Shown: positions 10,972 through 46,781, numbered from the stretch's first letter. The stretch: 64,000 nucleotides of DNA from a virus (IMGVR_UViG_3300043788_000176:56566-120565); one strand, 5' to 3'. The notes: a model not told the origin generated them from the letters alone. Numbers and translations are program-made.

Positions 10972-10978
10972 TCGTCCG

Positions 10979-12158: not shown

Positions 12159-12319
12159 TCTGCCGTGACGATCCGACCCCCGCTTCCGGGCACTCCGGAG
12201 GCTAAGACTTTGGGCTGCCCCTGTACGCTTGGGCAGCCCAGCGGCACCAACGAAGAGCGCGACTGGGAGCACGATTTCTGGGGTCTCCCGCCAGTGACGG
12301 TGTGGATTGTTCACCCTGA

Positions 12320-28395: not shown

Positions 28396-29385
28396 ATGAC
28401 GCAAAAACCCAATCCCACCAATAAGATATGGCAAGCCGGGTTCGACGATGGCGCCAAGGGCGCGCGAGCCAAATCCAAGCTTCCCACATACCTCGCCGGT
28501 CACAAAGCCGGCTCAGACGCCGCCCGCGACGCAAAAACCATTGCCGATGAAAGGCTTAATCCAACGCCACCGGCGCCCAAAATCAGCGCTCCTTCGGCTG
28601 TCAGCGAACCCACACCGCAACCCAAGCCCCGCCACCCTCGCCCTGGCGGCCACAAAGCCCGCCGCGCCCAAATCATCGCCCAGACCGATCCGACCTCACC
28701 TAGCAGCACTCCCGTAACGCCAAAATCACCCCGTAACGCTACGCCAGAAAGCGACGCGCCGAAGACCTCCCGCAAACACGCTAAGCCGCAGAAGCCAAAG
28801 CGTTTCGCCGCTCATTTCATCGCCCCTCGCGGCCGGGGCCAGCCTACTAAATACAATGACTCCCTCGCCTCAACCATCCTCCGCCTCATGACCACCGGAA
28901 TGTCCCTTAAGCGTATCTGTGACCAGCCAGGCATGCCTTGTGCCGATTCCGTGTACTATTGGCAGGCGATTCACCCTGACTTCTCCGTGAGATACGCTCG
29001 CGCGATGCTTGATCGGGCTCAATTCTGGGCTGAGGAGATACTAGACATTTCGGACGATGGGTCTAACGATTGGGTTGAACAGCAGCGGAACGGGAAAACC
29101 GTAATGGTCGGCGACCATGAGCATATTCAGCGCTCGCGGTTGCGGGTCGACACGCGTAAGTTCTTGATGGCAAAGCTAGATCCGAAACGGTGGGGCGATA
29201 AGATTCAGGTCAGCGGTGATGCGGACAATCCGCTGCAGATCTCGGTTCGAGACTTGGCCAAGGAACAGCACGCGCTATCGCCTCCTGAGCTGGCGGCGTT
29301 GCAGGCTTTCGCCGAGGCGCGGCGCAACGCGACCGAGATAGAGTCAGTCAATGCTGGCTCGACCGATGCGAGTGAATCCGACTAA
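28396..29385 (+). CDS. terminase small subunit-like protein with a long basic/Pro-rich N-terminal extension
   Basis: PTKYNDSLASTILRLMTTGMSLKRICDQPGMPCADSVYYWQAIHPDFSVRYARAMLDRAQFWAEEI matches the common TerS HTH core (PtkY...G.S...IC..gvs..T.Y.W...h.eF). Confidence 0.45.
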   Translation: MTQKPNPTNKIWQAGFDDGAKGARAKSKLPTYLAGHKAGSDAARDAKTIADERLNPTPPAPKISAPSAVSEPTPQPKPRHPRPGGHKARRAQIIAQTDPTSPSSTPVTPKSPRNATPESDAPKTSRKHAKPQKPKRFAAHFIAPRGRGQPTKYNDSLASTILRLMTTGMSLKRICDQPGMPCADSVYYWQAIHPDFSVRYARAMLDRAQFWAEEILDISDDGSNDWVEQQRNGKTVMVGDHEHIQRSRLRVDTRKFLMAKLDPKRWGDKIQVSGDADNPLQISVRDLAKEQHALSPPELAALQAFAEARRNATEIESVNAGSTDASESD

Positions 29386-32077: not shown

Positions 32078-32395
32078 ATGCCATTTGATGGAACACAACT
32101 CAGCAACTCAGTCGCGGCGGATTTGCTGCGAGCGCGGGCGTATTTGGTCGAGCATGGTTGGCACCAGGGAAGCTATGGCTATGATGGTGGTCCGCATTGC
32201 CTGCTAGGGGCAATCCACAGAGCCATCGATGACGAGTGCCACGACTGGCGGTTCACTGATGCGTGTCGGGCGCTTGGCCCGTTCGTTGATCAGGATGTAA
32301 TCCATGTGTGGAATGACGTGCCTGGTCGCACTTTTGATCAGGTATTGGCGGCACTTGATCACGCGATTGCATCGGCGATGGCCGAGACCGCGTAA
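32078..32395 (+). CDS. MPFDG-family protein 1 (paralogous small-protein family, unknown function)
   Basis: Starts MPFDGT. Motifs LLRARAYLVEHGWHQG, CLLGAI, WNDVPGRTFDQVLAALDHAI are shared with 7 other ORFs. GAGGGAGA Shine-Dalgarno. Confidence 0.5.
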   Translation: MPFDGTQLSNSVAADLLRARAYLVEHGWHQGSYGYDGGPHCLLGAIHRAIDDECHDWRFTDACRALGPFVDQDVIHVWNDVPGRTFDQVLAALDHAIASAMAETA

Positions 32396-32428
32396 AAATT
32401 CCCAGAAATTTTTGTGAGGTTTGGGGCG

Positions 32429-32656
32429 ATGAGCGACGGGACGGGGGTTGCGGCACTGTCTTTCTGGGAAGATATCGCGACGGCGCCGACTGACGGCACG
32501 GCCTTTTACGCCGTGATTCATGGGGTTGACATGGAAAAGTACGACAACCCAGGTCAGGCGGTATGTGTCTTTGATTCGGATGGGCAGTGCCGGGTTGCGA
32601 CGGGATGGGTCAAGTGCATCGCGACCCGCTGGCATCCGCTGATGCCCGATGTCTGA
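32429..32656 (+). CDS. hypothetical small protein
   Basis: Internal ATG start MSDGTGVAALSFWEDIATAPTDGTAFYAVIHG. Confidence 0.25.
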   Translation: MSDGTGVAALSFWEDIATAPTDGTAFYAVIHGVDMEKYDNPGQAVCVFDSDGQCRVATGWVKCIATRWHPLMPDV

Positions 32657-32885
32657 GATCAGCGAGCGGATGCTGCTGGCGGGCACCTTGGCGATTGTGA
32701 AGAACCGCGGGGTTTCCGAAAAAGACAAGGAATTCTACAACCTTGACGACTGGCGCTGGTGCCAAGACGACGCCCGCGCGAGCTATCTGGCGATGGAGGC
32801 TGAGAGACAGCGGGAAGAGGCCGAGAACGAGCGCCGAATCGCGTGGCTGCGCGACTCAGCAGCCAAGATCAGGAGCGCTGAATGA
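32649..32885 (+). CDS. hypothetical small protein
   Basis: 78-aa ORF with overlapping start/stop in an operon arrangement. Confidence 0.25.
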   Translation: MSEISERMLLAGTLAIVKNRGVSEKDKEFYNLDDWRWCQDDARASYLAMEAERQREEAENERRIAWLRDSAAKIRSAE

Positions 32886-33133
32886 CCGAGCCGACAACAG
32901 CCGACCGCGAAGCAGCGCACGCAGCGCTTGCGAATTATTGGCATTCCAACAACCCGGCTGCAAATGCAGACATGGCGAGGCAGGTAGCTCGCTTTCTCGC
33001 CGCGGCCCGCGCGGAGGAGCGTGAGCGGTGCGCCAAGATCGCAGAGTCTGCGTTCGACCGCGATCCCGTCGATCCTTCCGATGCAGAAGCGGATGCGACC
33101 TGGATTGCCGCAAAGATCAGGAGCGGCGAATGA
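32882..33133 (+). CDS. hypothetical small protein
   Basis: 83-aa ORF with an ATGA overlap. Confidence 0.25.
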   Translation: MTEPTTADREAAHAALANYWHSNNPAANADMARQVARFLAAARAEERERCAKIAESAFDRDPVDPSDAEADATWIAAKIRSGE

Positions 33134-33456
33134 ACATCATCGAACAGTGCGCCAAGTGTTGCCGCGAACAATTTGGCCATAGGCCAGTCCCAGACTGGTG
33201 GGAGCAGATGCACCAGGGCGCTCGCGAGCACTGGATCGCCGGGACGAATGCTGTTCTCGCCGAGTTCGCGCGGCTGGCGCATTGCGAGGAGATGGTCGAG
33301 AAGATAGCTAAGGCGCTGTACGACGATTGGCGGGACGAGATTGATCCGCCGGCCGATGAGCCGTGGGAAGAGGCCGAAGGCTTTCAAGCGCTGTGGAAAC
33401 AGAGAGCCAGACACGTCCTCGCCGCACTGTTCCGCGGAACCGGGGTGACTCCATGA
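33130..33456 (+). CDS. hypothetical small protein (CxxC at N-terminus)
   Basis: MNIIEQCAKCCREQFGH. ATGA overlap with the upstream ORF. Confidence 0.25.
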   Translation: MNIIEQCAKCCREQFGHRPVPDWWEQMHQGAREHWIAGTNAVLAEFARLAHCEEMVEKIAKALYDDWRDEIDPPADEPWEEAEGFQALWKQRARHVLAALFRGTGVTP

Positions 33457-33526
33457 TCCCGCTGGCTCGCGTTTTAGTGTGGCTCGGCATCCCGACCGCA
33501 GCGTGGTTTCTGATCGTGTGGCTGGG

Positions 33527-33760
33527 TTAGTCTGTCCCAGCCTGCGCGGTCAGCGCAGTGCTCAGACTTTGGTTGATCGCAAGCTGTGCCGCAGCGGGTG
33601 GTCCAGCGACGGTCCAGTATTGACCGCTCTGCATCCGAACGGTGGTGTTGTTGGGGCCGTTTGGCCCGACCGATTCGACATGCTCGCCAGAGATGTACTC
33701 GATGGTCAGGCTATTCGCCAAGGTGAACGGGATCAGCATTTTATCGCCAGAACGGCCCAC
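33527..33760 (-). CDS. hypothetical small protein (inverted islet)
   Basis: 77-aa minus-strand ORF inside an otherwise plus-strand region. Confidence 0.25.
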   Translation of the reverse strand: MGRSGDKMLIPFTLANSLTIEYISGEHVESVGPNGPNNTTVRMQSGQYWTVAGPPAAAQLAINQSLSTALTAQAGTD

Positions 33761-34115
33761 GTAACGGCGATGGATCTTCGGCCGGTTCTAGGCCAACCGG
33801 GGTTTCAAGCCGTTCCTTCATCACCGCCAACTCGGCGCGCGCTTGGTCGCGCTCATGCAGAGCTGTGTCACGTTCGATCGTCATCGCCTGTAGCGCGCAC
33901 CGATGTTCTTCGGCTGCCGCGAGAGCGGCGAGGAATTTGCTCTCCATCCGCTTCCGAGCCTCGTCGGCTTCGGTGGCTGTGCCAGACGCGTGATTACAAC
34001 CGAAGAGCGAGCCGACACCACCGATGGTCATCGGCACAGGCTCCCAGATCAGGTGCTGCGCCTGCATCTGCATCCACGCCTGCTGCATGGCTTGGTTGAA
34101 GTTTTGGTCAGCCAT
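33741..34115 (-). CDS. hypothetical coiled-coil protein (inverted islet)
   Basis: Gln/Met-rich N-terminus (MADQNFNQAMQQAWMQMQAQ) and a coiled-coil C-terminus. Internal ATG preferred over the TTG of the longer ORF. Confidence 0.3.
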   Translation of the reverse strand: MADQNFNQAMQQAWMQMQAQHLIWEPVPMTIGGVGSLFGCNHASGTATEADEARKRMESKFLAALAAAEEHRCALQAMTIERDTALHERDQARAELAVMKERLETPVGLEPAEDPSPLRGPFWR

Positions 34116-34247
34116 CGCGATCACTCCCGTTATCCCTTCGAGCAGACAATACCCGATCGCCCGATCTCGGCGCAATCCCCGCGTTGACCCTCTTGACAGA
34201 CGCCCGAGATAGCGTTAATGTCCCCAACTCATCAGAGAGAGGGACAG

Positions 34248-34886
34248 ATGCGTAGCTTACTTCTGGCTGCCACGGCGGTCATGGCGTTAACTATCACGGC
34301 GGCGCGAGCCGATCAGATCACGGGCGGGGCTGGCGGAGACTGGGCGACGACAGGGTCGGGAGGCGGAGCGCTCAGCATGAGCACAGGCGGTTGGTCGGCA
34401 ACGGCGTTCGATCCAGCCGACGATTTGGGGAATGCGGTTTTTGGCGCCTCATCCCTCACGACCAATGTGCAGTCGGCCGGTGTGTTTTCTGTGAAGACCG
34501 GGGGTGTGCAGTCGTTCTCATTCACCAGCGGCGCGAACACGCTGGATGGCACCCTCCACTTGGCGGACGTTGTTGACAATTCGTTGAATCCCCATGTTGA
34601 CGGGACGCTCGACATCACCGCGGTGACGGGAGATCTTCTGTCCACGTTTACGGTCGGCGGCACGGCGTCGTTCGACGCGATCATGGAAGATGTGACGACG
34701 CGGCTGGATGCCTTGTCGCTCACCAAAAATGAGGAGAATATTTTTACCAGCAGCATTGAGATCGTACCAAACAACGTCCCCGAGCCGGCTTCGGCCTTGC
34801 TGCTCGGCGTCGGGTTGCTCGGTATCGGTTGGATAAGGCGCCGCCGCGCACCCGCCGCGATGCGGGCAGGCGTCGGCGGCGTCTGA
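34248..34886 (+). CDS. PEP-CTERM sorting-domain secreted protein
   Basis: Signal peptide MRSLLLAATAVMALTITAARA. C-terminus VPEPASALLLGVGLLGIGWIRRRR is the canonical PEP-CTERM (VPEP, TM helix, Arg cluster). Confidence 0.55.
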   Translation: MRSLLLAATAVMALTITAARADQITGGAGGDWATTGSGGGALSMSTGGWSATAFDPADDLGNAVFGASSLTTNVQSAGVFSVKTGGVQSFSFTSGANTLDGTLHLADVVDNSLNPHVDGTLDITAVTGDLLSTFTVGGTASFDAIMEDVTTRLDALSLTKNEENIFTSSIEIVPNNVPEPASALLLGVGLLGIGWIRRRRAPAAMRAGVGGV

Positions 34887-35065
34887 TTAACCAGCTCTGC
34901 CGCCTTTAGCGTTTCAGGCGGCGAGACGCGGAGCCGGTGGACTCCGTGGTCCTCCCAAACTTGACCCGGTTCGCCGGGTCTTTTTTCGTTCCCGCCAAAA
35001 TGACGCTTGCCTCACGCAGCGGTGTTGGTTATGCTAACCCCATTCGACTCATCAAGGGGATGACA

Positions 35066-35428
35066 ATGCCATTCGATGACAACACGATCCTGTCCTATCG
35101 CGAGGAGACGCCGCTTGACCGGCGGCGTCAACTGATCGCCGCCCTGCGGAACCTGCCAAAAGAATTCGAGTGGAACTTCGCTGTGGACAGAAAGAAGGCC
35201 GAATGCGGCAGTCAGGGGTGCGCACTCGGGCTGGCCAGCATCCTGTGGCCGGACAGAGTTGATGCGGAAAGACCTCGTTTTAGCGCGGTCGGCAGGCAAA
35301 TCGGGCTTTCGCCAGAAGCTACCTACCATATCATGGGTTTTGAGGGGCGCTTCGCTTGTTACGATATATGCAAGGTTACCGCCGCGATGGTCGCCGACGC
35401 CCTAGAGGAGACGATCGATGCCGTTTGA
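35066..35428 (+). CDS. MPFDG-family protein 2 (divergent member)
   Basis: Starts MPFDDNT. Retains the GCALGLASILW core. AAGGGGA Shine-Dalgarno. Confidence 0.4.
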   Translation: MPFDDNTILSYREETPLDRRRQLIAALRNLPKEFEWNFAVDRKKAECGSQGCALGLASILWPDRVDAERPRFSAVGRQIGLSPEATYHIMGFEGRFACYDICKVTAAMVADALEETIDAV

Positions 35429-35762
35429 TAATCTCCCGGTTGTTTCAAATCCGGTGCGCGACGTGATCGACCAAGCGATTGAGCGCATCGAGACCGATGG
35501 CTGGTGCCAGGGATCTCGGGGTGTGCACCCAAAAGGCACCAGAGGGCTCAGCGTTTGCCTGCTCGGCGCGATCGGGATTTGCCAAGTCTGGGGATGTTAC
35601 TTTGCGCTTACCCCAGATGTCGAGGAAGCGAAGCGATTGCTCGCCGAGATGATTCCGCGGTGCGGAGACGAGCAGCACTCGCTCTTTATGTGGAATGACG
35701 ATCCCCAGCGCACCCGCGACGAAGTGATTGATTTGCTGAAGCGAGCCCGCGACCTAGCGTAA
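35418..35762 (+). CDS. MPFDG-family protein 3
   Basis: MPFDNLP...GWCQGSRG...CLLGAIG...MWNDDPQRTRDEVIDLLKRA. Confidence 0.5.
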   Translation: MPFDNLPVVSNPVRDVIDQAIERIETDGWCQGSRGVHPKGTRGLSVCLLGAIGICQVWGCYFALTPDVEEAKRLLAEMIPRCGDEQHSLFMWNDDPQRTRDEVIDLLKRARDLA

Positions 35763-35775
35763 CAAGGAGATTAGC

Positions 35776-36159
35776 ATGCCGTTTGACGGAACGACGAGCC
35801 CAACCCTCGAAACCCTGATCCGCGCAAGACAAATCCTCGCTGAGGGTGGGTGGCTTCAGCACACCTTATCTGATGATCTCGGTCGAGTATGCGCAATCGG
35901 AGCGCTGCTCAAAGGTCATCGTGCCATGGCAGGTCGCGATGACCGTAGCTCGATCCTCCCTGCTATCAGAGTCCTCGTTGAGGCCAATCAACTGCCGCCA
36001 GAGGATGATCATCGTTTATCCACTCCCGAAGCAGCCCGATTGCAGATCAGCGTCGTCAGATGGAATAACGCCGCCGGTCGGACCAAAGAAGAAGTGCTCG
36101 ACGCGTTCGACCGAGCCATCGAAAGCCTAATTCCGAGGAGTCATTGCGATGCCGTTTGA
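35776..36159 (+). CDS. MPFDG-family protein 4
   Basis: MPFDGTTSPTLETLIRARQILAEGGWLQ...CAIGALL...RWNNAAGRTKEEVLDAFDRAI. AAGGAGA Shine-Dalgarno. Confidence 0.5.
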   Translation: MPFDGTTSPTLETLIRARQILAEGGWLQHTLSDDLGRVCAIGALLKGHRAMAGRDDRSSILPAIRVLVEANQLPPEDDHRLSTPEAARLQISVVRWNNAAGRTKEEVLDAFDRAIESLIPRSHCDAV

Positions 36160-36469
36160 CGGCGCTGAACTGAACGAGACCGCCACCACCCTCCTCCGCG
36201 CGCGGCAATATTTAGTGGAGCGCGGCTGGTGCAAGGGCGCATTTGGGGATGATGGGTCGCCTCGTTGTATGGTCGGTGCTATCCTGAGCGCGACTGGAGC
36301 GCGCGGATGTTTCGACCCTCTGATCTTGGGAGCAATGCGGGCACTGAAGTCTGTTACTGGCAGTCCCGGCACGGTCGTGGGATGGAATGACGCTCCTGAC
36401 CGCACCGAGCAGGAAGTGCTCGACGCCTTCGATCGAGCCGCCGCCATCGCTCATAGTGCCTCGCTATGA
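36149..36469 (+). CDS. MPFDG-family protein 5
   Basis: MPFDGAELNETATTLLRARQYLVERGWCKG...CMVGAIL...GWNDAPDRTEQEVLDAFDRA. Confidence 0.5.
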   Translation: MPFDGAELNETATTLLRARQYLVERGWCKGAFGDDGSPRCMVGAILSATGARGCFDPLILGAMRALKSVTGSPGTVVGWNDAPDRTEQEVLDAFDRAAAIAHSASL

Positions 36470-36702
36470 GCGGCGAGATGGACGAGTTGTTTGTCTGGGT
36501 CGAGGACGGCCCAGACGACAAAGAGGGGACGATCGCCACGATTATCCCAGGGTTTTCGGCTGGTCCGATACCCCTCCAGTCCCGCAGTCGCGCCATTGCG
36601 ATGCAATTTCGCGAGTTCGCCGAAGCCCATCGCCAAGCGAGCGGCAACCCAGTACGCCTGCTGCGCTTCCGCCGCGATAGCGTGGTCGAGGAACTCCCCT
36701 AA
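36466..36702 (+). CDS. hypothetical small protein
   Basis: 78-aa ORF overlapping the upstream stop. Confidence 0.25.
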   Translation: MSGEMDELFVWVEDGPDDKEGTIATIIPGFSAGPIPLQSRSRAIAMQFREFAEAHRQASGNPVRLLRFRRDSVVEELP

Positions 36703-36717
36703 TATATAAGGTGAACG
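36697..36717 (+). promoter_or_regulatory. repeated promoter-like element CCCTAATATATAA (copy 1)
   Basis: CCCCTAATATATAAGGTGAAC immediately 5' of ATG 36718. Contains a TATATAA -10-like core. One of three near-identical copies. Confidence 0.35.
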
Positions 36718-37416
36718 ATGGACCAGATGATCATCGCCACCCCGCCGCAGGAGGACGAGATCGTCCTGTCGCTGATCGAGCAGAAGACGATCACCCACGA
36801 CACGGTGCGGATCAATGTTACGGTAGCCGCGCAACGCGACGCCGAGACCGACGAAACCGAACTGCGCCAGCGGATTCGGGCGGTATTGCGCAAATTTATC
36901 GAAGGCGAATGGCGGTTCACTGGGGTTCAGCGATTACAGGGGCAGACCCGATTCGAGATCGTCAACGTGCAGGCGGTGGTGCGAGCTTCCGAGAGCGAGA
37001 ACCGGCAACTGGCCGAACGCGCGAAGGCGGTGTCGCAGCAGGGTTTGGAATTGGTCAACCCGCAGGCGACATACGCTCTGCCGGTGGCGAAGGTGCGCGA
37101 GATCAATCGCGACTTGCGGGTCGCGCTGGCGACACAGGCTGCCGCCGAATGCGCGCTCTATAATAAGAACGTGGGACCGTCGGGGCTGTATCGCGTCGCC
37201 GTCATCGAATTTGCCGATACTTGGCGGCTCAATGCCCCACATGCAGGGCAGGCGGCGCAGACAATGCGGGCGTCTTCGGCATACGCCAACAACGTCTACA
37301 CGCCGAGCGGCGGCAGCGGAGCCGAGCCGGATGTCGAGGAGGGCGGGGCTGATCTCGGCGTCAGCGAGCGGTTCTGGGTCGCGGCCCAAGTCACCCTGCG
37401 CGCCAAGATCGCGTGA
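36718..37416 (+). CDS. hypothetical protein
   Basis: 232-aa ORF preceded by the repeated TATATAA element. Confidence 0.35.
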   Translation: MDQMIIATPPQEDEIVLSLIEQKTITHDTVRINVTVAAQRDAETDETELRQRIRAVLRKFIEGEWRFTGVQRLQGQTRFEIVNVQAVVRASESENRQLAERAKAVSQQGLELVNPQATYALPVAKVREINRDLRVALATQAAAECALYNKNVGPSGLYRVAVIEFADTWRLNAPHAGQAAQTMRASSAYANNVYTPSGGSGAEPDVEEGGADLGVSERFWVAAQVTLRAKIA

Positions 37417-37441
37417 CGCCCTAATATATAATGAGTCTCAC
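37417..37441 (+). promoter_or_regulatory. repeated promoter-like element CCCTAATATATAATGAGTC (copy 2)
   Basis: CGCCCTAATATATAATGAGTCTCAC directly upstream of ATG 37442. Confidence 0.35.
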
Positions 37442-37693
37442 ATGAGAGATCCGATCCGCGACCGCATCGGCGGCGGCACTCTTGATCCCGATCGGCTGTG
37501 GAAAATCCACGGACCAGATTGGCGGGGTGCTGTTACCGACTACAACAACGAAATCACCGGAGCTACGGCGGAGTTGGCCAATCTGCCAGAATGTCGTTAT
37601 GGCAACTACATTTGGCCGTTGCTCGATGCTTGCCGCCGTTTGGGCTATCGCATCGAGCAAGTTGACGAAAGGAGCCCAGACTATGCCATTTGA
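37442..37693 (+). CDS. hypothetical small protein
   Basis: MRDPIRDRIGGGTLDPDRLWKIHGPDWRGAV..., an internal Met of a longer ORF. Starts right after motif copy 2. Confidence 0.3.
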   Translation: MRDPIRDRIGGGTLDPDRLWKIHGPDWRGAVTDYNNEITGATAELANLPECRYGNYIWPLLDACRRLGYRIEQVDERSPDYAI

Positions 37694-38024
37694 CGGAACC
37701 AACTCCCGCGGAGCCAAGGCGGTCTACGTCATCGATCGTATGCTGGAAATGTTCGATGGTGGGAAATACTGGGTCTGCGGTCATTGGTTTCTGCATCATC
37801 CTGATGGTAGCAAACAGCGCTGCTTGCTGACCGCGCTTCGCGCGGTGCGGAAAACTGACAAGATTTCAGGAGATAACGCCGGGCGTTATCTAGCCCGCGC
37901 AATTTTTGAAAAACATGGCGAGCGGTTGTCGATTATAATGTATAATGACGGCCATCCTAATTTTGCGGACATTGAGCGTGCGCTGCATCGTGCCCGTGAA
38001 TTGGCCGCGCAGGACATCGGCTGA
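37683..38024 (+). CDS. MPFDG-family protein 6 (divergent)
   Basis: MPFDGTNSRGAKAVYVIDRMLEMFDGGKYWVCGHW...CLLTALRA...MYNDGHPNFADIERALHRA. AGGAGC Shine-Dalgarno. Confidence 0.45.
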   Translation: MPFDGTNSRGAKAVYVIDRMLEMFDGGKYWVCGHWFLHHPDGSKQRCLLTALRAVRKTDKISGDNAGRYLARAIFEKHGERLSIIMYNDGHPNFADIERALHRARELAAQDIG

Positions 38025-38048
38025 TCCCTATATATAATGAGTCCTAGC
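38025..38048 (+). promoter_or_regulatory. repeated promoter-like element CCCTATATATAATGAGTC (copy 3)
   Basis: TCCCTATATATAATGAGTCCTAGCC directly upstream of ATG 38050. Confidence 0.35.
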
Positions 38049-38049
38049 C

Positions 38050-38655
38050 ATGCCGAAGAAGGGCGTTCCTCCCACTCCTGAGCACCTAGCGGCAATGGCT
38101 GAGGGACGCCGCCGTGCTGCTGCGGAGCGAGATGCGGTCGTTTCCCCGATCCGACCACCGCCCCGACCAGTTCCAGAAGAATCGTGGAACGCCGCGATGC
38201 TCACTGAACTCCGCGCGATCCGCACGCTTCTCGAAATGAGGTTGCCTAGCTGGACGGCCGCTACGCCAAACGCGGTCGCACGCGACATGAACCGCGAGAC
38301 TAGCAGACAGTTCGCCACCGCAAAGCTCGACCGCGCTAAGGAAGCCGTTCGCCAATTCACCAAGGTCAGCGACGGCAATCAGTGGAACGATACGAAATCA
38401 CCCAGTGCGGTCCCAGTTGTCGAGCCCGATGGCGCAGAGGACGTATTCGATCTCGGCGATGAATTGACTGAACTCAATCGCGAGATCGCCGACGAATTGC
38501 CCCCGCCGCCATCACTCGATGAGCAGTGGGTCAGCCGATTGGATAAGTTCAAGCGATTTGGGATGTGGCTCCCAGAGTGGTCGGGTCGCCCCGGTCAAGC
38601 AGATTGCGATGCGCCAGTCGAACTCCTGGAGGAATACGGCTTTGTCAAGCGATAG
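38050..38655 (+). CDS. hypothetical protein upstream of terL
   Basis: 201-aa ORF with an MPKKGVPPTPEHLAAMAEGRRRAAAERD N-terminus and an acidic C-terminus. Confidence 0.35.
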   Translation: MPKKGVPPTPEHLAAMAEGRRRAAAERDAVVSPIRPPPRPVPEESWNAAMLTELRAIRTLLEMRLPSWTAATPNAVARDMNRETSRQFATAKLDRAKEAVRQFTKVSDGNQWNDTKSPSAVPVVEPDGAEDVFDLGDELTELNREIADELPPPPSLDEQWVSRLDKFKRFGMWLPEWSGRPGQADCDAPVELLEEYGFVKR

Positions 38656-38861
38656 GTTTGTCGTGGCTTGGCGATTTCCGTGCGACGATCGGCATCGGAC
38701 ACTAGACCAAGCACTCGCCGCCGGTGCAATCGAGCGCCAGCGCTGGCACGATCAGAACCCAGACCACAAACTCGGCGCATTGTGTGTTCAGCGCATCGGT
38801 GCCAATGATGAGTGGATCGTGTCGGCTTCCGTTCTTGGCACATCCGCACTAAATCTGGTGC

Positions 38862-41800
38862 GTGAAGAGCAAGGAACGGCCATCACAGGGGAAAGGCACT
38901 AGACGCCAATCCCCCGTCCTGCGGCTAGGCGACGAGGCAATACCGCCTGAGTTACGCCATCTCCGCAATCACCCTGCCTTCGAACTCGCCTACCGCTTCC
39001 CAAAGGAAGGACTAAAGCACTTCGAGCGACTGCGGTGCGAGCAGTCGCTGCTGGCGTTTTTTGAGCGGGCGTGGCGCGAATTCGATCCGGCTGCGGTCAA
39101 GATCAATTGGCACCATGAGGCGATCTGTGAACACCTTATGGCTGTAACACGCGGAGAAATTCGCCGTTTAATCATTAACGTGCCACCTAGGGCTTCAAAA
39201 AGCAATTTAGTGAACATTATATGGCCCGCATGGACGTGGGTGCAAAAGCCGCGCGAAGCTTGGCTGTCTGGGCCGCAGATAAAATTCATGTGCATCTCTT
39301 ACGGTCAAAAACTCTCAAGTGAGATCGCGACATTAGCTCGACATCTGGTTTTATCGGAATGGTATCAGGGGAATTGGGGAGAGAAGACCAAGCTATACGA
39401 CGACCAATCGCGCATTGATAATTTTGGTAACATCTCAGGCGGCGTGCGCATTGCCACCTCGATGACTGGGTCCACCCTTGGCCGGGGCGGCGACATAAGA
39501 ATCATCGACGATGCCCAAAATGTTGAAGATGCCAACTCACCGATCGAGACGGATCGCGTGGTCCGCACTTATCGTGAATCGTTGCAAACTCGCGAAACCG
39601 ATCCGCAGACCTCAGCCGAGGTCATCATCATGCAGCGGCTCAATGAAAACGATTTGACTGGCTACATCCTGTCAGAGGCGTCGGATGACGTTGTGCATCT
39701 GGTCTACCCAATGCGGCATGATCCGACGCGTCACTGCACCACGCGGTGGTTCGATGATCCTCGGACGAAGGATCAGGAATTGCTGTGGCCGGCACAATTT
39801 CCAGAAGAGGTTGTCGCCGATCGCGAACGGCGGATGGGACCTTTTGCGGTAGCCGGGCAATATCAACAGGCCCCCGAGCCGCGCGGCGGCGGCATCTTCA
39901 AGCGCGATTGGTTTCAAGCATGGCCCGTCGTTGATGAGTATGGCGAGGTGCCCGCGGGTTCGATCATCAATGGTCGCATCATCTATCCAGCTCTCGAATA
40001 TATCGTGGCCTCGGTTGACACGGCGCATACGGCTAAAGAAGAAAATGATTACTGTGCAATGATCGTTCTGGGCGTCTTCCGTGCCGAAGGCAAGGGAAGG
40101 ATCGAGCGACAGGCTGACGGTCAGTATATTAGGATCGCTGACGATCAGGGTTATCCCAAAGTATTGTTGTTGCATGGATGGATGAAAAGGTTGACAATCC
40201 ATGGACCACCAGAAGAACTGCCAGCAGGCATTGATCTTAAACTATGGAACAGCGCGAGCTATCTCCCAGAGCGACAAAAGACATGGGGACTAGTTGAGTG
40301 GGTTCATCACAGTTGTCGGCGATATAAGGTCGATCACCTGATTATTGAAACTCAGGCAGCAGGGCATGCCTTGGATGCCGAGTTACATCGCCTACACTCC
40401 GACAGCACATGGAGTGTGGAGTTGTCTCCCGCGCGTGGAGATAAAGTGGCCCGTGGCTATAAGGTGCAAGGCATGTTCTCAAGTCATCAGTTCTATGCCC
40501 CGACGTATCAAGATGGTACTTATCCGACCTGGTGCGAACCTATTATTGACCAGTTATGTGTCTTTCCCAAGGGCAGACACGATGACGCTGTCGATGCTTG
40601 TCTCGCTCCAGAAACGCCAATTTTGACTACTAGGGGGTTAGTGCCAATCTGTGACATCGCGGTCGGCGATGAAGTGATGACCCACCGAGGTCGCTGGCGA
40701 TCGGTAACTGCGGTCGGCAACCGCATTGCGAAAGAGCGCCTACGGATCAAAGCCAAAGGCCTTGAGGCGATCGAAGTTACCGCAGAACACCCGTTTTTGA
40801 CGCTGCCTGTGATTTTTTCACAAGCCCGCGCGCTGCCAAAACGCAGAGCCGGTAACCCATCTTGGAAACCAGCAGGATGGCTGCGAGAACGCGCGCGTTA
40901 CACCTTTTTGCGTGAAGGCAAGTTAGTATCATCGCAGAAGCGTAGCGATTACGATTGTCTCGTAATACCGCGACCCATAATGGAAGATAATGATGGCTTC
41001 CTAGACGCGAGCAAGTTTGCCCCGTCCGAATCGTGGGCTGATGATCACCTCATCTATTGCAATCGACTCAGCACAGCGAAGTTGTCGGTTGCTGAGGTCA
41101 GCCAGATTGCAAAATTAAGGAATAGTAGTGCAACGGCTACGGCGGTAGCCCGTGATTTTGACATTAGCATTCCGATTGTTTGCGATATCTGGGCCGGACG
41201 CCGACCCGGACCGGGAGTGCAGACTAGCCCGCGATGGATCGAGTTAACAGAGGAGGCGGGATGGGCCTTTGGTCTTTTTGCCGCCGAGGGTTGCGTGTGT
41301 GGTGGTCAGATCATATGGACCTGCGACGGCGATGCAGTTCGCCGGGTTCAAAAATGGGCATCAACCGCCTTTGACCATTATGTCGGCATATCCGAAGGTG
41401 GCATATGCGATCGTGCAGTGCTGTCTAGTTTGGTGGTGGCACCCCTTTTCCGAACTTTCGGTTATCTCGCACGTAACAAAATTGTCCCTGCGTGGGTATT
41501 TGGGGCCTCGGATTTATTTATTAAGGGGTTTGTTGATGGATTTACTCACGGGGATGGATCATCAGCCACGCGCCGCCCTGGAGATTCGGGGCAGTTTGTG
41601 CTTACATCGTCATCGCCCTCTCTGCTTTGGGGGATGCGAATTCTACTCGCGCGACTGGGCGTCCCGTCATCGCGTGGGACACCGAAGGCTGCGGGGGCGC
41701 GCATAATCGGTGGGCAACTCCGCCAATGCCGAGAATCTTATCGGTTAGATTATAACGTCGGAGGACGAGGACATCTCGCGACAGTGCATGATGCCTACAT

Positions 41801-42041
41801 CGGGCACCACATCGAAAAAATCGAACGAATTAAAGAGGCATGCGAGGTCTTCAATATCGCCGTCAGTGAAGATGAGAGCTATCTAACGGTTGGCGGTGTC
41901 GTGCATAACTGTACCCAGGCTCTAGCCCATCTCCGCGACATCGGCATCTTTGAGCGGCGTGGCGAATACGAGATTGCCGAAGAGCAATCCAGGATTTGGA
42001 TGCCTGGGCAGCAGCGATTCGAATTGCCCTACGATCTCTGA
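38862..42041 (+). CDS. terL: terminase large subunit (T7 gp19-like), interrupted by an in-frame intein
   Basis: Walker A-like IINVPPRASKS. Motifs DIRIIDDAQN and RHDDAVDA|CTQALAHLRD parallel T7 gp19 (ADIIIADD, AHDDRLDALALG). The extein sums to about 622 aa. Confidence 0.75.
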   Translation: MKSKERPSQGKGTRRQSPVLRLGDEAIPPELRHLRNHPAFELAYRFPKEGLKHFERLRCEQSLLAFFERAWREFDPAAVKINWHHEAICEHLMAVTRGEIRRLIINVPPRASKSNLVNIIWPAWTWVQKPREAWLSGPQIKFMCISYGQKLSSEIATLARHLVLSEWYQGNWGEKTKLYDDQSRIDNFGNISGGVRIATSMTGSTLGRGGDIRIIDDAQNVEDANSPIETDRVVRTYRESLQTRETDPQTSAEVIIMQRLNENDLTGYILSEASDDVVHLVYPMRHDPTRHCTTRWFDDPRTKDQELLWPAQFPEEVVADRERRMGPFAVAGQYQQAPEPRGGGIFKRDWFQAWPVVDEYGEVPAGSIINGRIIYPALEYIVASVDTAHTAKEENDYCAMIVLGVFRAEGKGRIERQADGQYIRIADDQGYPKVLLLHGWMKRLTIHGPPEELPAGIDLKLWNSASYLPERQKTWGLVEWVHHSCRRYKVDHLIIETQAAGHALDAELHRLHSDSTWSVELSPARGDKVARGYKVQGMFSSHQFYAPTYQDGTYPTWCEPIIDQLCVFPKGRHDDAVDACLAPETPILTTRGLVPICDIAVGDEVMTHRGRWRSVTAVGNRIAKERLRIKAKGLEAIEVTAEHPFLTLPVIFSQARALPKRRAGNPSWKPAGWLRERARYTFLREGKLVSSQKRSDYDCLVIPRPIMEDNDGFLDASKFAPSESWADDHLIYCNRLSTAKLSVAEVSQIAKLRNSSATATAVARDFDISIPIVCDIWAGRRPGPGVQTSPRWIELTEEAGWAFGLFAAEGCVCGGQIIWTCDGDAVRRVQKWASTAFDHYVGISEGGICDRAVLSSLVVAPLFRTFGYLARNKIVPAWVFGASDLFIKGFVDGFTHGDGSSATRRPGDSGQFVLTSSSPSLLWGMRILLARLGVPSSRGTPKAAGARIIGGQLRQCRESYRLDYNVGGRGHLATVHDAYIGHHIEKIERIKEACEVFNIAVSEDESYLTVGGVVHNCTQALAHLRDIGIFERRGEYEIAEEQSRIWMPGQQRFELPYDL
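40599..41909 (+). mobile_element. intein (437 aa) with LAGLIDADG homing-endonuclease domain inside terL
   Basis: Begins CLAPETPILTTRGLVPICDIAVGDEV (block A, Cys1). Ends YLTVGGVVHN followed by +1 Cys (CTQ). Internal LAGLIDADG-like motifs WAFGLFAAEGC and FIKGFVDGFTHGDGS. In frame with terL. Lower GC than the flanks. Confidence 0.7.
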
Positions 42042-42077
42042 TAAAAGGCTTGACGCCCCGCGATTTGTGCGCTTCAA

Positions 42078-42305
42078 TTGCGCATGAAGCGCACCCCAAA
42101 CCCTCGCCTGCACTTCGAAGTCTCGGAAACCCTGGATGCCGAACTCCGGGCCATCGCCGAGGATCAGGGGGTTAGCCTAGCTACCGTGCTGCGCGCCGGG
42201 ATCGCGCTGGTCAAGATTTACCACCGCACGAAGCAGATCAAACGCCATCTCGGGATTGTTTCCGACCCGGCGGTTCTCGACACCGAGATCATCGGGCTTT
42301 TTTAA
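42078..42305 (+). CDS. ribbon-helix-helix (CopG-like) DNA-binding protein
   Basis: RLHFEVSETLDAELRAIAEDQGVSLATVLRAGIAL matches the RHH beta-alpha-alpha pattern. Confidence 0.4.
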   Translation: MRMKRTPNPRLHFEVSETLDAELRAIAEDQGVSLATVLRAGIALVKIYHRTKQIKRHLGIVSDPAVLDTEIIGLF

Positions 42306-42320
42306 CCATCGGAGGACGAC

Positions 42321-42776
42321 GTGGAAGTGCCCGAAATCATCACCAAGCGGCTTGCCGAGTTGAATCGCTACATCAGCGAGTTGGAAGAGCAGCTTGGACC
42401 GTTTCTCGAAGAGCGCGAAGCGCTACGGATCGCATCAATTGCGATCCGCAGCAAGGGTGCGCCGGCAGGCACACAAGAAGACTTCGAGCGAGTCGCCGCT
42501 ACACACCAGGATATGCTTGCGGCGTCGGCCTCCTGGACTTGGCCTTCTGCCGAGCCGATCCCGCATCTGCGAAATGCAGACAAGGACGAGACTCTGGAGG
42601 GGGCGCCCCGAACGATTTCTGAGAGGATTCTGGGGGCGCTCACCGAGCCGATGACCGCGCTGCAAATCGCGCACGCGCTTGGTGTTCCGGTCGCGAATGT
42701 TTCGCCGCGACTGACAACATTGTATCACCGCGGCAAACTGACCCATGAAGGGCCATTGTGGGGGCCGATCAGCTAA
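42321..42776 (+). CDS. hypothetical protein with C-terminal winged-HTH
   Basis: C-terminus MTALQIAHALGVPVANVSPRLTTLYHRGKL is MarR/wHTH-like. Confidence 0.35.
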   Translation: MEVPEIITKRLAELNRYISELEEQLGPFLEEREALRIASIAIRSKGAPAGTQEDFERVAATHQDMLAASASWTWPSAEPIPHLRNADKDETLEGAPRTISERILGALTEPMTALQIAHALGVPVANVSPRLTTLYHRGKLTHEGPLWGPIS

Positions 42777-42804
42777 CTGAATCACTGAACAAGGGAGACG
42801 ACCA

Positions 42805-43674
42805 ATGCCGTTTGACGGGAACACCGTAGAGTTTGAAGATGTCGTTGATGCCAAGGTAACGCGGTCGTCCGCCAAACCAATTCGGCATCCAATGTGGCCA
42901 TTTGCGGTAGCCACGATAATAATGATAATAACTGCTGCTGGCGCATTCGCACTCGTTTGGTTGTCGCCAGATCGGACAACCCCAAAGCCAGTTCCAACTC
43001 CGGTTCCAGCCCATCAACCTATGGTGGCTGTTGGCGATGCCGCTCTCTGTGCGTCGGTAGACGCCCACGGCATATGGTCAGCAGTGTCGTGTGGTGGCGA
43101 CTCCACATCACCGCGTTCTGGTCCCGTCGAGGCATTCGCGATCGAAGAAGACACCTACTACGACGCCAATGGCGGCATCATTAGTCGGAACCGCGATGTC
43201 TTCGGGACGGGGCGAACCAGCTGTGGCGATCAGGATTGCCCAGGCCCGCAGGCCATTACTAGCGGCAATTTTGTCAATATCGACAGCAACGGCACGCCCC
43301 AATGGGTTGTCTCATCATCGTCGTCTGGCATCATGACGTATCCCTCTGGTCAACAACTACTGGGTGGCGCCGCCACAGCGGCGATGGCTGGGGGAATGGA
43401 TGTCCGCAGTCTAACCGTGTTGGGGCAACAGATTGATCTTCCGCCTCACGCGCTACTAACATTCGACGGTAATGGCAACGCCGTCATTTCTCTCCTTCAC
43501 TATGACCCGCAGCCAACGATCACTTGGCACGGGGTCAAGGAAACTTTCTATGACGCGGCTGGCTTCCCGCTGCGCTCGACGACCAATGTTCACTTTTACA
43601 ACGGGGAATACTGCCACCCCGGCTACCAGTCCAGCGCGGGCGCGCCTGCTACTGGGCGCACGCCGAACACTTGA
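42805..43674 (+). CDS. MPFDG-N-terminus membrane protein (family member 7, fused to TM and extracytoplasmic domain)
   Basis: Starts MPFDGNTVEF, then TM helix WPFAVATIIMIITAAGAFALVWL and a ~230-aa Gly/Ser/Thr-rich domain. GGAGACGACC Shine-Dalgarno like the other family members. Confidence 0.4.
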   Translation: MPFDGNTVEFEDVVDAKVTRSSAKPIRHPMWPFAVATIIMIITAAGAFALVWLSPDRTTPKPVPTPVPAHQPMVAVGDAALCASVDAHGIWSAVSCGGDSTSPRSGPVEAFAIEEDTYYDANGGIISRNRDVFGTGRTSCGDQDCPGPQAITSGNFVNIDSNGTPQWVVSSSSSGIMTYPSGQQLLGGAATAAMAGGMDVRSLTVLGQQIDLPPHALLTFDGNGNAVISLLHYDPQPTITWHGVKETFYDAAGFPLRSTTNVHFYNGEYCHPGYQSSAGAPATGRTPNT

Positions 43675-43686
43675 TGGAGGTTGGTA

Positions 43687-44019
43687 ATGCCCTTTGACGG
43701 GACGATGAATCCGATCGTGCTGGAACTGCAAACCGCGCGCGGTCGGATAGAGCGAGGGTGGTGCCAGTTCAGCCTTCAAACCTCGCTTGGGGAGGTGTGT
43801 CTGCTCGGGGCGCTGGGGTACACCCAGCCAGGGAGAGAACCGATGACACCAGCCGCTCTTGCGGTGGCGAGGCAAATTTATCCTGTGCATCATAAAACGC
43901 CGCAACCCCTCATGTTGGCGATGTGGAATGACGATCTTTCGCGCACGAAGGCGGAGGTTCTGGCGGTTTTTGATCAGGCGATTGCCGCCGAGAGCCTGGG
44001 CGTGGGGCCGCTGAATTGA
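43687..44019 (+). CDS. MPFDG-family protein 8
   Basis: MPFDGTMNPIVLELQTARGRIERGWCQ...CLLGALG...MWNDDLSRTKAEVLAVFDQAI. Confidence 0.5.
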   Translation: MPFDGTMNPIVLELQTARGRIERGWCQFSLQTSLGEVCLLGALGYTQPGREPMTPAALAVARQIYPVHHKTPQPLMLAMWNDDLSRTKAEVLAVFDQAIAAESLGVGPLN

Positions 44020-44348
44020 GCGCTCCGCATGTTTATGTTGACGCTGACTTAGCGCGTCGTCTGATAGTAAGGGCGCGGGATATTGGATATGATGTGTCTT
44101 TTGGTTCAGAAGGAGAGCTGGTCTTGACTTGTCGGAGGCATGTATTCGTGCCGCAAACCATGCGGTGCGGGCGCTGCTTTGCGCGGGCGTGGCCGACATG
44201 GGGCGAGCCGATGACGCCAGAAGCGGCGCTGGCGGAAGATCGCGAACGCATCGAAGCGGAACATGCAGCGCGTATGGCAGAATTGCCATCGTTCTATGTG
44301 CCATGGCATGGGAGTGACGCGGGGAAGGCTTCGCAATCCCGATCGTGA
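44016..44348 (+). CDS. hypothetical protein
   Basis: 110-aa ORF between MPFDG member 8 and the portal gene. Confidence 0.3.
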   Translation: MSAPHVYVDADLARRLIVRARDIGYDVSFGSEGELVLTCRRHVFVPQTMRCGRCFARAWPTWGEPMTPEAALAEDRERIEAEHAARMAELPSFYVPWHGSDAGKASQSRS

Positions 44349-44426: not shown

Positions 44427-46781
44427 ATGCCCGACGATCTGGCGCACGGGTTCTCCCGTATCCCGCCTCCCGATGAGCCCGAGGGTCTTCCCGAGGACGA
44501 GGGAGGCGAGGTCTCGGTTCTCACCGACGACCCCTCAGTCAAGCCCAGGCTTGACCCCAAGACTGGGGCCTTGTCAATTGACACCGAGGATGGCGGCGTT
44601 GTTGTCCAATTCAACCCGCCAAAGCCGCAAGCCGACACCCGCGACGACAAGTTTTTCGCCAATCTCGCCGACAAGATCAGTGCCGAGGCCCGCAACGAGA
44701 TCGTCAGCGAACTCCTAGAGGGGATCGCGGCCGATGACCAGTCGCGCACGCAATGGCTCGACATGCGTGCCGAAGGGATCAAGATGCTCGGCATCGCGCT
44801 GGAAAAGCCGCGCGCCGATGCTGGCAACACGACCGAGCCGTTCGAGGGGATGTCGACAATCCGGCATCCGCTGCTGTCCGAAGCCATCGCCCGATTCCAA
44901 GCCAATGCCGCCGCCGAACTCTATCCGCCGAGCGGCCCCGTCAAGGTCCGCGACGATCGGCCTTCGAAGCCGAGTGGTGCCAACGACATCCCCGGCATCG
45001 GCGACAATGGCGGCCCGCCTCTCGATGACGGGAGTCCGCCCGTTCAAGCGACTCGTGAGGAACTCGCCGAGGCACTGGAAAAGGGCTTCAACCACAATCT
45101 GACGGTGGTTGACCGCGGCTATCGCCCCGACAGCGTGCGGATGCTGTTCGAGATCGGTTTCTCCGGCTGTGCCTTTAAAAAGGTCTACGACTGCCCAATC
45201 CGCGAACGCCCGATCAGCCGCTTTGTCAAGGCGACCGACATCATCGTCGCCGACGCCACTTCGGACGCGCGCGATGCTGGCCGACTGACGCACCGCATTG
45301 TGATGCGGCAGAGCGTGGTCAGGCGGATGCAGATCCTCGGCGTCTACCGCGATATCGAACTGCATGAGCCATTCTTCGAGCCCAATGCTGCGGAACAAGC
45401 GACCGCCCGCGCTCAGGGGCTCGAAGACAAGCCGCAGCGCCAAGAGGACCAGCCGCGCACGATCTACGAATCCTATGTCGAACTCGACATTGAGGGGTTT
45501 GAGCACAAACGGCACGGGAAGCCGACTGGGCTGCCGTTGCCCTACAAGGTCACGATCGACAAAGACAGCCGCGAGATGCTCGAACTGCGGCGCAATTGGG
45601 AGGAAGACGACGACACCTTTCAGCCGCGCACCGTGTTCGTCAAATTCGGATTTATCCCGGCGCTCGGATTTTACGACATTGGTCTGTTGCACCTGTTGGG
45701 TAACGGCGACAAAGCCCTGACCGCTGCGTGGCGCGAGGCGCTCGACACCGGGATGTTCAATAACTTTCCGGGGTTCATGTATAATGAAGGCGTCATCCGC
45801 AACTGGACGAATCAGAACCGCATCCCGCCTGGCGGGGGGCTTGGGATCAAGGGAGTACCCCCCAATGTTCCGTTGCGCAATGTTCTGGAACCGCTGCCGT
45901 ACAAGGATGTCAGCGCCGGGCTCGTTGGCATCACGACCCACATCGAGCAGCGCATGGATCGGGTCGCCAGCATGGGCGAATTGCCGGTTGGCGAGGGCGT
46001 GCAAAACGCCCCGGTGGGAACCACCCTGGCTCTGCTCGATCAAGCCCAGAAGTTATTGGCTGCGGTGCATATCGGGCTGCACGCCAGTCAAGCCGAGGAA
46101 TTTGCCCTATTAAAGGAGCGCTACAAGCAGAACCCAGAATCGTTCTGGCGGTGGAATAAGAAGGGCTATGCGTGGGAGGAGAGCCTGTTCCTCCAGGCCC
46201 TCGATGATTGCGAGATCGTCCCGGCGGCCGATCCGAATACCGCATCGCACACCCTACGGCTGATCAAGTGCCAAGCGGTCAAGCTGGTGGCGCAGATGAA
46301 CCCGCAGATGTACGACATGAAAAAGGTTGATGAGTGGGTCTTCAAGATGATCGGGGTTGCCGATTCCGACTCCTTCTTCGCGCCGCCGCCCGATCCCAAC
46401 GCGCCGCCGCCAGCAATCCCGGTTGACCCCAACAAGCAGGCGCAGGTCCAGCAGAAACAGGATCAGGTGCAGACCGAGAATCAGGCCAAGATCGCGGCGC
46501 TCCAAGTCAAAGGCCAGCAGCAGGAACAGGACAACGCCGCCAAGATGGCCGAGATGCAGATGGGGCAAGCGGCAGAATCCCGTGACGCCCAACTTCAAGC
46601 ACAACAAAGCGTTGTAGAGAGCGCCGATCGCGAGGCCGACCGCGCCTCACGCGAACGGGTCGCGGCGATGCGTGAGCAAACCGAGCAGGCCAAATTACAG
46701 CACGAGGCAACGCAAAACACCATGGACCGCGCCCACGAAACGCTAACCGCACCTCCGCCCGCCGCCCCTGAAACGCCATAA
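44427..46781 (+). CDS. portal (head-to-tail connector) protein, podovirus type
   Basis: 784-aa protein downstream of terL. Long Gln/Glu-rich C-terminal tail (QVQQKQDQVQTENQAK...) like T7 gp8-type connectors. Assignment is by size, position and composition. Confidence 0.5.
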   Translation: MPDDLAHGFSRIPPPDEPEGLPEDEGGEVSVLTDDPSVKPRLDPKTGALSIDTEDGGVVVQFNPPKPQADTRDDKFFANLADKISAEARNEIVSELLEGIAADDQSRTQWLDMRAEGIKMLGIALEKPRADAGNTTEPFEGMSTIRHPLLSEAIARFQANAAAELYPPSGPVKVRDDRPSKPSGANDIPGIGDNGGPPLDDGSPPVQATREELAEALEKGFNHNLTVVDRGYRPDSVRMLFEIGFSGCAFKKVYDCPIRERPISRFVKATDIIVADATSDARDAGRLTHRIVMRQSVVRRMQILGVYRDIELHEPFFEPNAAEQATARAQGLEDKPQRQEDQPRTIYESYVELDIEGFEHKRHGKPTGLPLPYKVTIDKDSREMLELRRNWEEDDDTFQPRTVFVKFGFIPALGFYDIGLLHLLGNGDKALTAAWREALDTGMFNNFPGFMYNEGVIRNWTNQNRIPPGGGLGIKGVPPNVPLRNVLEPLPYKDVSAGLVGITTHIEQRMDRVASMGELPVGEGVQNAPVGTTLALLDQAQKLLAAVHIGLHASQAEEFALLKERYKQNPESFWRWNKKGYAWEESLFLQALDDCEIVPAADPNTASHTLRLIKCQAVKLVAQMNPQMYDMKKVDEWVFKMIGVADSDSFFAPPPDPNAPPPAIPVDPNKQAQVQQKQDQVQTENQAKIAALQVKGQQQEQDNAAKMAEMQMGQAAESRDAQLQAQQSVVESADREADRASRERVAAMREQTEQAKLQHEATQNTMDRAHETLTAPPPAAPETP

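Follow-up and report, generated by a model that had tools for sequence, protein, structure and literature searches.

An expansion of the uncharacterised DUF6197 family with a shared MPFDG start in an uncultured phage

Why do eight genes of one phage begin with the same four residues, Met-Pro-Phe-Asp (MPFD)? This question is raised by positions 32,078 to 44,019 of IMGVR_UViG_3300043788_000176:56566-120565, a 64,000-nucleotide (nt) stretch of viral DNA referred to here, at its full length, as the window. The initial annotation described the eight open-reading frames (ORFs) as a scattered family of paralogous small proteins that could not be assigned to any characterised protein, and read them as arms-race genes. 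We find that the locus is a lineage-specific expansion of a catalogued, uncharacterised family, DUF6197 in Pfam and 762 in PHROG, in an uncultured phage of ~120 kb, and that, besides five clear copies bearing the N-terminal tag, the window contains a degenerate copy, a probable divergent relative and an untagged member.

Family membership of the MPFD genes

The pattern for an MPFD start, ATGCCNTTYGAY, occurs at exactly 8 sites of the 64-kb window, each of them on the + strand (32078, 35066, 35418, 35776, 36149, 37683, 42805 and 43687, the coordinates by which the genes are named here), while shuffled sequence gives an expectation of 0.20 and 0 of 100 shuffles attain 8, ruling out a chance or artefactual origin of the starts. 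All eight previously described ORFs were thus recovered, spanning 105-289 amino acids (aa), and no further MPFD was found in the window when all six frames were scanned. Each gene also has its own Shine-Dalgarno site, as had been described, with GGAG, GAGG or GGGG lying 6-9 nt 5′ of the ATG in 8 of 8 cases. A longer upstream start is formally possible for 35066, 37683 and 43687, but the MPFD start is favoured because of the ribosome-binding sites (RBSs), a strong terminator at 34963-34990 that falls within the would-be extension of 35066, the gene calls in related contigs and the homologues that begin at MPFD. Together with an untagged paralog outside the range first noted, 6568(-), these make nine MPFD/DUF6197 genes:

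32078..32395, + strand: MPFDG-tagged DUF6197 paralog, 105 aa (Pfam PF19698 78.6 bits, E 5.4e-22; PHROG 762 E 2e-14)
35066..35428, + strand: MPFDD-tagged, probably a divergent DUF6197 relative, 120 aa, of the "35066-like" family (hhalign; no Pfam or PHROG match)
35418..35762, + strand: MPFDN-tagged DUF6197 paralog, 114 aa (Pfam 72.7 bits)
35776..36159, + strand: MPFDG-tagged DUF6197 paralog, 127 aa (Pfam 70.6 bits)
36149..36469, + strand: MPFDG-tagged DUF6197 paralog, 106 aa, the copy modelled (Pfam 77.8 bits)
37683..38024, + strand: MPFDG-tagged degenerate DUF6197-like paralog, 113 aa (Pfam 23.7 bits; PHROG 762 E 0.005)
42805..43674, + strand: MPFDGN-tagged single-pass membrane protein, 289 aa, not DUF6197 (no family match; predicted helix 31-51)
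43687..44019, + strand: MPFDG-tagged DUF6197 paralog, 110 aa (Pfam 57.1 bits)
6568..6972, - strand: untagged DUF6197 paralog, 134 aa, starting MDEALQ (Pfam 54.7 bits)

Scored as whole proteins with the hidden Markov model (HMM) of DUF6197 (PF19698, gathering cutoff 24.6 bits), six of them exceed the cutoff at 54.7-78.6 bits (32078, 35418, 35776, 36149, 43687 and 6568(-)) and 37683 falls just under it at 23.7 bits. PHROG 762 was matched by five tagged copies (E 8e-12 to 1.3e-14), and 35066 and 42805 gave no HMM match to either family. The proteins, first regarded as unassignable, therefore match families that are themselves of unknown function. The motifs GW(C/H)QG, C(L/M)(L/V)GA and WND.P.RT..EVL.AFD.AI, which had been attributed to six of the proteins, were verified in 32078, 35418, 35776, 36149 and 43687 but are degenerate in 37683, which has YND in place of WND and lacks RT; the looser forms G-W-x-Q-G, C-x-x-G-A and W-N-D-x-x-x-R-T are found in all six above-cutoff members, 6568(-) included. 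What 35066 has in common with the others is confined to the C.LG.A motif and the C-terminal helix. A profile of 35066-like proteins aligned with DUF6197 from the Cys motif to that helix (hhalign, 88.5% probability, E 2.7e-6, 61 columns, from a shallow query with an effective sequence number, Neff, of 1.9), suggesting that 35066 is probably a divergent relative of DUF6197; HMMER of 35066 against the family gave no match (E 0.4).

The remaining gene, 42805, is of a different kind. Its local HMM similarity is confined to profile positions 1-11 and stops ~12 residues in, and the tag leads into a helix (31-51) predicted to span the membrane and then into ~230 aa that form a beta-rich domain with Cys residues. 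Homologues of 42805 form a family of their own, separate from DUF6197; its AlphaFold2 model, from six sequences, shows helix 31-51 but has a predicted local distance difference test score (pLDDT) of 37, which makes it otherwise unreliable and of no use for fold search. The view of this gene as a family member fused to a transmembrane helix is accordingly withdrawn in favour of an unrelated membrane protein, and the eight-member family is reduced to seven proteins that belong to or resemble DUF6197. Similarity limited to the N-terminus is seen in 42805; five tagged copies match DUF6197 as whole proteins.

An AlphaFold2 model of 36149, built from 132 sequences, consists of five helices and is confident (pLDDT 90.5, with ~74 for the N-terminal coil), in line with a family of five-helix, probably cytoplasmic proteins of ~100 aa; no informative structural match was obtained. 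Foldseek with this model and a sequence search gave no significant match in the PDB, and in BFVD Foldseek returned 11 matches at E ≤ 1e-3 (TM 0.62-0.80; best E 4.6e-6, TM 0.79), all of them uncharacterised and encoded by phages of Mycobacterium, Caulobacter, Rhizobium, Streptomyces and Achromobacter. Cys40 is invariant (132/132 sequences), Trp27, Asn80 and Arg85 are near-invariant (each in ≥128 of the 132) and Thr86 is found in 119 of 132; the conservation of these polar residues across paralogs suggests a common biochemical site or ligand, which agrees less well with purely diversifying binders. A Cys pair acting as a required disulfide or metal site was ruled out as a general feature, as the second Cys (position 28), though common, is absent from 31 of the 132 sequences and from three window copies.

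The MPFDG extension and its initiation region

A profile of the window copies matched 23,006 clusters (50% identity) at E ≤ 1e-3. Among 152 proteins, namely the best 150 of these clusters plus P0001 and P0002 (the latter a homologue of 35776 that also begins MPFDGTT), 85 start with MPFD, 12 with MPLD and 4 with MPYD, a count that is biased upwards by the presence of the tag in the search profile itself. Untagged members begin ~7 residues later, right at helix 1; the invariant Trp is residue 26-27 in 71% of tagged proteins, while most untagged ones have it at 19-20, and position 102 tends to be hydrophobic in the former and polar in the latter. The tag is missing from actinophage (Fryberger gp106), Myxococcus phage Mx1 (three tandem copies) and bacterial copies (mostly Actinomycetota), and 9 of 9 sampled 35066-like members, from 6 distinct phage lineages, begin MP[FY]D. 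Over the eight window copies the Pro, Phe and Asp codons of the tag vary synonymously, indicating selection on the peptide. MPFDG is a fixed 7-residue N-terminal extension that marks a large DUF6197 subfamily and is kept at the protein level. Within DUF6197 it probably packs against the C-terminal helix, given its fixed spacing and the difference at position 102, a correlation that could also come from shared ancestry; the simplest reading there is a structural cap inherited by descent.

In an unbiased IMG/VR scan for an RBS followed by MPFDG, 18 DUF6197 genes stood among the 79 matches listed, along with many unrelated families; those listed included tail-fibre-like proteins (MPFDGSGNY/F) and an 87-aa winged-helix protein (MPFDGKTYDP). 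A scan with MPDFG as a composition-matched control behaved likewise among the matches listed, with abundant families of its own. MPFDG as a phage-wide N-terminal tag was dropped for these reasons, as no general enrichment can be claimed, and its presence on the tail-fibre-like and winged-helix families is taken as a coincidence of family-specific N-termini.

In the family of 42805, MPFDGN is kept in all full-length homologues at identities down to 35%, and the following ~25 residues diverge; in the 35%-identical homologue from the unrelated phage L068 the RBS region differs and MPFDGN is intact. The initiation regions of 32078 and 42805 are near-identical DNA (GGGAGACGAC..ATGCC.TTTGA.GG.AA), which suggests that the 5′ end of 42805 was gained by recombination with a DUF6197 gene; the membrane gene thus probably acquired its tag at the common RBS/start module. 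Within that module, ATGCCNTTTGAY holds, in the +3 frame, a TGA with which the upstream ORF terminates in the case of 35418 (where it lies within the TTT-GAT codons), 36149 and 37683. Start/stop overlaps ATGCCNTTTGA of 11 nt join 35418 to 35066, 36149 to 35776 and 37683 to an 83-aa ORF, and the same embedded-TGA overlap occurs at two unrelated loci, L103 and L199, an arrangement that is consistent with translational coupling. The upstream spacer was ruled out as a conserved RNA operator, since spacers differ between phages. A metagenomic protein of 149 aa, P0098, has two MPFD motifs in one ORF, in which a 37-residue N-terminal fragment resembling 35418 is fused in frame, at MPFDG, to a complete 37683-like protein; it has the look of a scar left by recombination at this start module.

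These observations raise the alternative that the conserved start is mainly a nucleic-acid element, in which the RBS and ATGCCNTTTGAYGG would form an initiation or coupling module and recombination junction with the peptide as a by-product. The embedded stop codons just described, in L103 and L199 as in the window, would fit this, as would the joining of P0098 at its second MPFDG, an allele swap in 32078 that breaks 28 nt into the gene (see below), and the Phe codon of the tag, which is TTT in 7 of 8 copies versus 35% genome-wide (p ~0.004). The paralogs are not independent, however, so that this codon bias may reflect descent, and of 26 distinct tagged genes elsewhere 8 have TTC. The third positions of the Pro and Asp codons are free to vary, the F/L/Y substitutions preserve amino-acid character, the peptide is kept where spacers differ between phages, and 5 of the 8 genes do not overlap the upstream ORF, all of which makes a primarily nucleic-acid role very unlikely. 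It is also unlikely, if less so, that MPFDG is a portable N-terminal short linear motif, a handle by which unrelated proteins engage a common host or phage factor; it could, once the N-terminus is processed, expose proteins to regulated proteolysis, or it could bring them to a complex or to the membrane or, by analogy with the T4 capsid-targeting sequence, load them into the virion. Three families bear the tag (DUF6197, 35066-like and the membrane protein), every sampled 35066-like protein has it, untagged DUF6197 domains of actinophages, Mx1 and bacteria fold without it, and tagged genes adjoin head and packaging genes. Further in favour, the membrane family offers no folded cytoplasmic domain against which its invariant MPFDGN could pack, and the distant L068 homologue retains the peptide despite its different RBS region. 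On the other hand, five residues are very few, and MPFDG starts unrelated families in the unbiased scan as any pentapeptide would. The 35066-like and DUF6197 proteins are probably homologous, so that common descent may account for the tag in two of the three families, and the near-identical initiation DNA of 42805 and 32078 suggests recent recombination in the third. Fixed spacing and covariation with position 102 suggest an intramolecular role within DUF6197, no protease-type cleavage motif was seen in the tagged proteins, and capsid cargo is an unlikely role for a membrane protein.

T4-type internal proteins (IPI-III, Alt) share an N-terminal capsid-targeting sequence and are encoded by polymorphic genes near head genes; their targeting peptide ends at a prohead-protease cleavage site, and the proteins are present in virions. 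The window genes are alike in encoding diverse small proteins with a short shared N-terminal peptide, in polymorphism and in nearness to head genes. Unlike the T4 proteins, they have a motif of only 5-6 residues with no recognisable cleavage motif, are known here from genes alone, and are for the most part mutually homologous, with a membrane protein as one carrier. A further proposal, that MPFDG(N/T) is a transferable recognition peptide, either read by a common factor or bound in trans by the DUF6197 domain, so that accessory proteins would be co-regulated or co-localised, is distinctly improbable; we keep it in consideration because of the strict retention of the tag on the membrane protein beside a variable linker.

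Variation among related phages and context elsewhere

The window, part of a JGI contig of 120,565 bp, was compared with a 122-kb IMG/VR contig and several fragments at 90-97% DNA identity, whose portal protein is 99% identical; megablast found no close DNA relatives among isolated phages. Copy number varies between these relatives through the gain or loss of two cassettes, and one gene varies by allele swap. Besides the genes listed above, the features involved are:

37420..37437, + strand: left direct-repeat copy of CCTAATATATAATGAGTC flanking the 37683 cassette (two copies in window)
37442..37693, + strand: 83-aa ORF in the same cassette as 37683 (from the ORF list; no family match)
38026..38043, + strand: right direct-repeat copy, promoter-like, upstream of gene 38050 (AGGACA-16-TATAAT)
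42782..44342, + strand: three-gene cassette of 42805, 43687 and 44016..44348 (present or absent among related phages)
44016..44348, + strand: 110-aa ORF, third gene of the 42782-44342 cassette (from the ORF list; no family match)

In L001, the body of 32078 is swapped for another allele (50% aa identity); homology is lost at 32106, 28 nt from the start of the gene, and returns at 32391 at the stop codon. The cassette at 37440-38016, comprising the 83-aa ORF and 37683, is missing from L001 and L004; the 18-nt repeat CCTAATATATAATGAGTC that flanks it has only two copies in the window and a single copy in L001, which represents the empty site. The same pair of 83-aa and 113-aa genes is called in L069. 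The cassette at 42782-44342 is replaced by 48 nt in L001, L004, L005 and L006 and is present in L003, where the 43687 orthologue lies upstream of the portal gene; L069 has the membrane gene only. Pairwise ratios of nonsynonymous to synonymous substitution (dN/dS) are 0.31-0.65 for the MPFD genes and 1.2-1.45, on few sites, for 35066, compared to 0.03 for the portal, 0.05 for a gene encoding a PEP-CTERM protein and 0.13-0.18 for the conserved neighbours g36718 and g38050. The ratios are thus raised relative to the portal (0.3-1.4 vs 0.03), but positive selection was demonstrated by no pairwise comparison among the related phages. The MPFD genes are non-structural accessory cassettes that are gained, lost and swapped between closely related phages, and constraint on them is relaxed. 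In their insertion between conserved genes, presence or absence and relaxed constraint they resemble the moron or accessory cassettes of tailed phages, a likeness extended by the duplicated promoter-like repeat that flanks one of them. Where morons are unrelated single insertions, these cassettes belong to a single family that recurs with a conserved start module and with overlapping starts and stops.

Known DUF6197/PHROG 762 proteins such as gp47 and gp72 of Gordonia phage Nebulosus are like the window copies in motifs and length, and cluster A15 Gordonia phages also have more than one copy per genome in some cases, with one or two DUF6197 copies plus tandem-domain versions (PMC10586128). The window copies differ in their fixed MPFDG extension, which was lacking in every copy examined from actinophages, Myxococcus phage and bacteria, in lying between terminase subunit genes where known copies lie in the replication arm, and in sharing their tag with a non-homologous membrane protein. 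Other phages have untagged copies in tandem arrays, numbering 3, 5 and 13. The largest, in L076 (IMGVR_UViG_3300020576_005251, 173 kb), packs thirteen genes into ~4 kb (8184-12316), many of them in head-to-tail overlap; five are found in L090 and three in each of L099, L089 and L088. In phages, the neighbours of DUF6197 copies include genes for RecT, ERF, SSB, primase and a YqaJ-like exonuclease. In Mx1 (L031), three tandem genes (1839-5469) stand between two adenylyl/cytidylyltransferase genes and a nicotinamide phosphoribosyltransferase (NAMPT) gene, a neighbourhood that amounts to an NAD-salvage type cluster; clusters of this type are linked to counter-defence. Streptomycetaceae copies follow an FtsK/SpoIIIE (TraB-like) gene and precede a DUF3987 or C5-methylase gene, a setting typical of integrative conjugative elements. 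In the unrelated phage L080, the small and large terminase genes are separated by a 35066-like gene and a tagged DUF6197 gene, which repeats the layout of the window at a smaller size; the same gap also holds a GapR-like gene, which hints at an alphaproteobacterial host.

In the window, the MPFD genes sit in a non-structural stretch from the small terminase gene (28396..29385) to the portal gene (44427..46781). The small terminase, of Sf6 type, is encoded ~9.5 kb upstream of the large terminase gene (38862..42041), and the gap is filled by small variable genes, most MPFD copies included. The large terminase has an intein at ~40588-41919 with Hint and LAGLIDADG domains; this 1.3-kb insertion is missing from the terminases of L001, L004, L005 and L006, the flanking terminase DNA (39499-40588) is only 68% identical in L001, L004 and L006, and intein-bearing terminases are also found in L069 and the unrelated L080. 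The product of 34218..34886 is secreted-looking with a PEP-CTERM sorting motif (Pfam E 2e-6). Its gene, which is followed by the strong intrinsic terminator at 34963-34990, is 99% conserved in related phages, implying that the host has an exosortase and that the gene is under real selection. The untagged 6568..6972 is flanked by an AAA ATPase gene (6991..8664) on one side and a 359-aa ORF without a family match (5508..6587) on the other, with a weak RecT-like gene (4027..5166, under the Pfam cutoff) further downstream. Other cargo of the window includes a subtilase (Peptidase_S8, 413..1504), an N6/N4 DNA methylase (13298..14149) and tRNA-Gly(GCC) (63763..63838).

Possible functions and significance

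How might such genes serve the phage? We propose that DUF6197 proteins would be small factors of mobile elements, of a binding or modifying kind, that work in the infected cytoplasm, with a role in counter-defence, host interference or the establishment of incoming DNA; the conserved site around Cys40 with Trp27, Asn80, Arg85 and Thr86 would be in use, and paralog diversity would tune specificity. This cytoplasmic role through a Cys-centred site is put forward tentatively, at somewhat short of an even chance. The explanation taken whole, from the expansion, cassettes and tag subfamily to the accessory function and tag packing, we consider somewhat more probable than not. As to the arms-race reading that the locus first received, the diversified paralogs, cassettes, raised dN/dS, arrays of up to 13 genes and mobile-element loci make it reasonable and plausible, but it is unproven and a link to defence is missing: PADLOC gave no match at E ≤ 0.1 for the nine proteins and the 83-aa partner ORF, NCBIfam gave none for the window proteins, and in the literature searched DUF6197 is mentioned only in one genome announcement, with nothing relevant retrieved for the Pfam and PHROG accessions or for MPFDG.

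The absence of a link to any defence or counter-defence system in PADLOC, NCBIfam or the literature counts against the proposed role, and several further points do so as well. Other small accessory genes nearby are similarly relaxed (dN/dS 0.37-0.65), which makes the MPFD genes unexceptional in this regard, and gene-wide dN/dS is below 1 in all copies but 35066, for which few sites were available. In Actinomycetota, some copies near mfd and mazG resemble conserved chromosomal genes; in Propionibacteriales (L037, L039, L044 and L050), longer DUF6197-like proteins of ~200-280 aa have a conserved mfd-like/mazG-like chromosomal neighbourhood, and therefore not every family member is on a mobile element. 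Tag packing alone does not explain MPFDGN next to the variable, apparently unstructured linker of the membrane family. For the conserved polar residues, a common ligand or an enzymatic role would be no worse a fit than an arms-race binder, and no annotated homologue or experiment backs any function. Alternatively, DUF6197 proteins would be replication, recombination or packaging accessory factors with one conserved activity, such as thiol or metal chemistry or tRNA or DNA binding, in which case the multiple copies would provide dosage or hetero-oligomers and have no part in conflict with host defences. The invariant residues and the RecT, ERF, SSB and primase neighbours of phage copies would suit such a role; the swapping of cassettes and alleles between sister phages and the diversity of the paralogs are the features that the accessory-factor proposal above was framed on, and we hold the replication or packaging alternative to be rather unlikely.

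If the tag is a transferable recognition peptide, the locus would be a new example of the coordinate handling of phage accessory proteins; if not, it is a well-described yet ordinary expansion of a DUF family. That family is very large, with >23,000 clusters at 50% identity in phages and actinobacterial mobile elements, and is uncharacterised. Nine diverged copies in one genome, with sister phages that differ by one cassette or allele, amount to a compact natural experiment with easy deletion and swap genetics, in which the invariant Cys-centred site, the 7-residue MPFDG extension and the 11-nt start/stop overlap module are defined, testable features.

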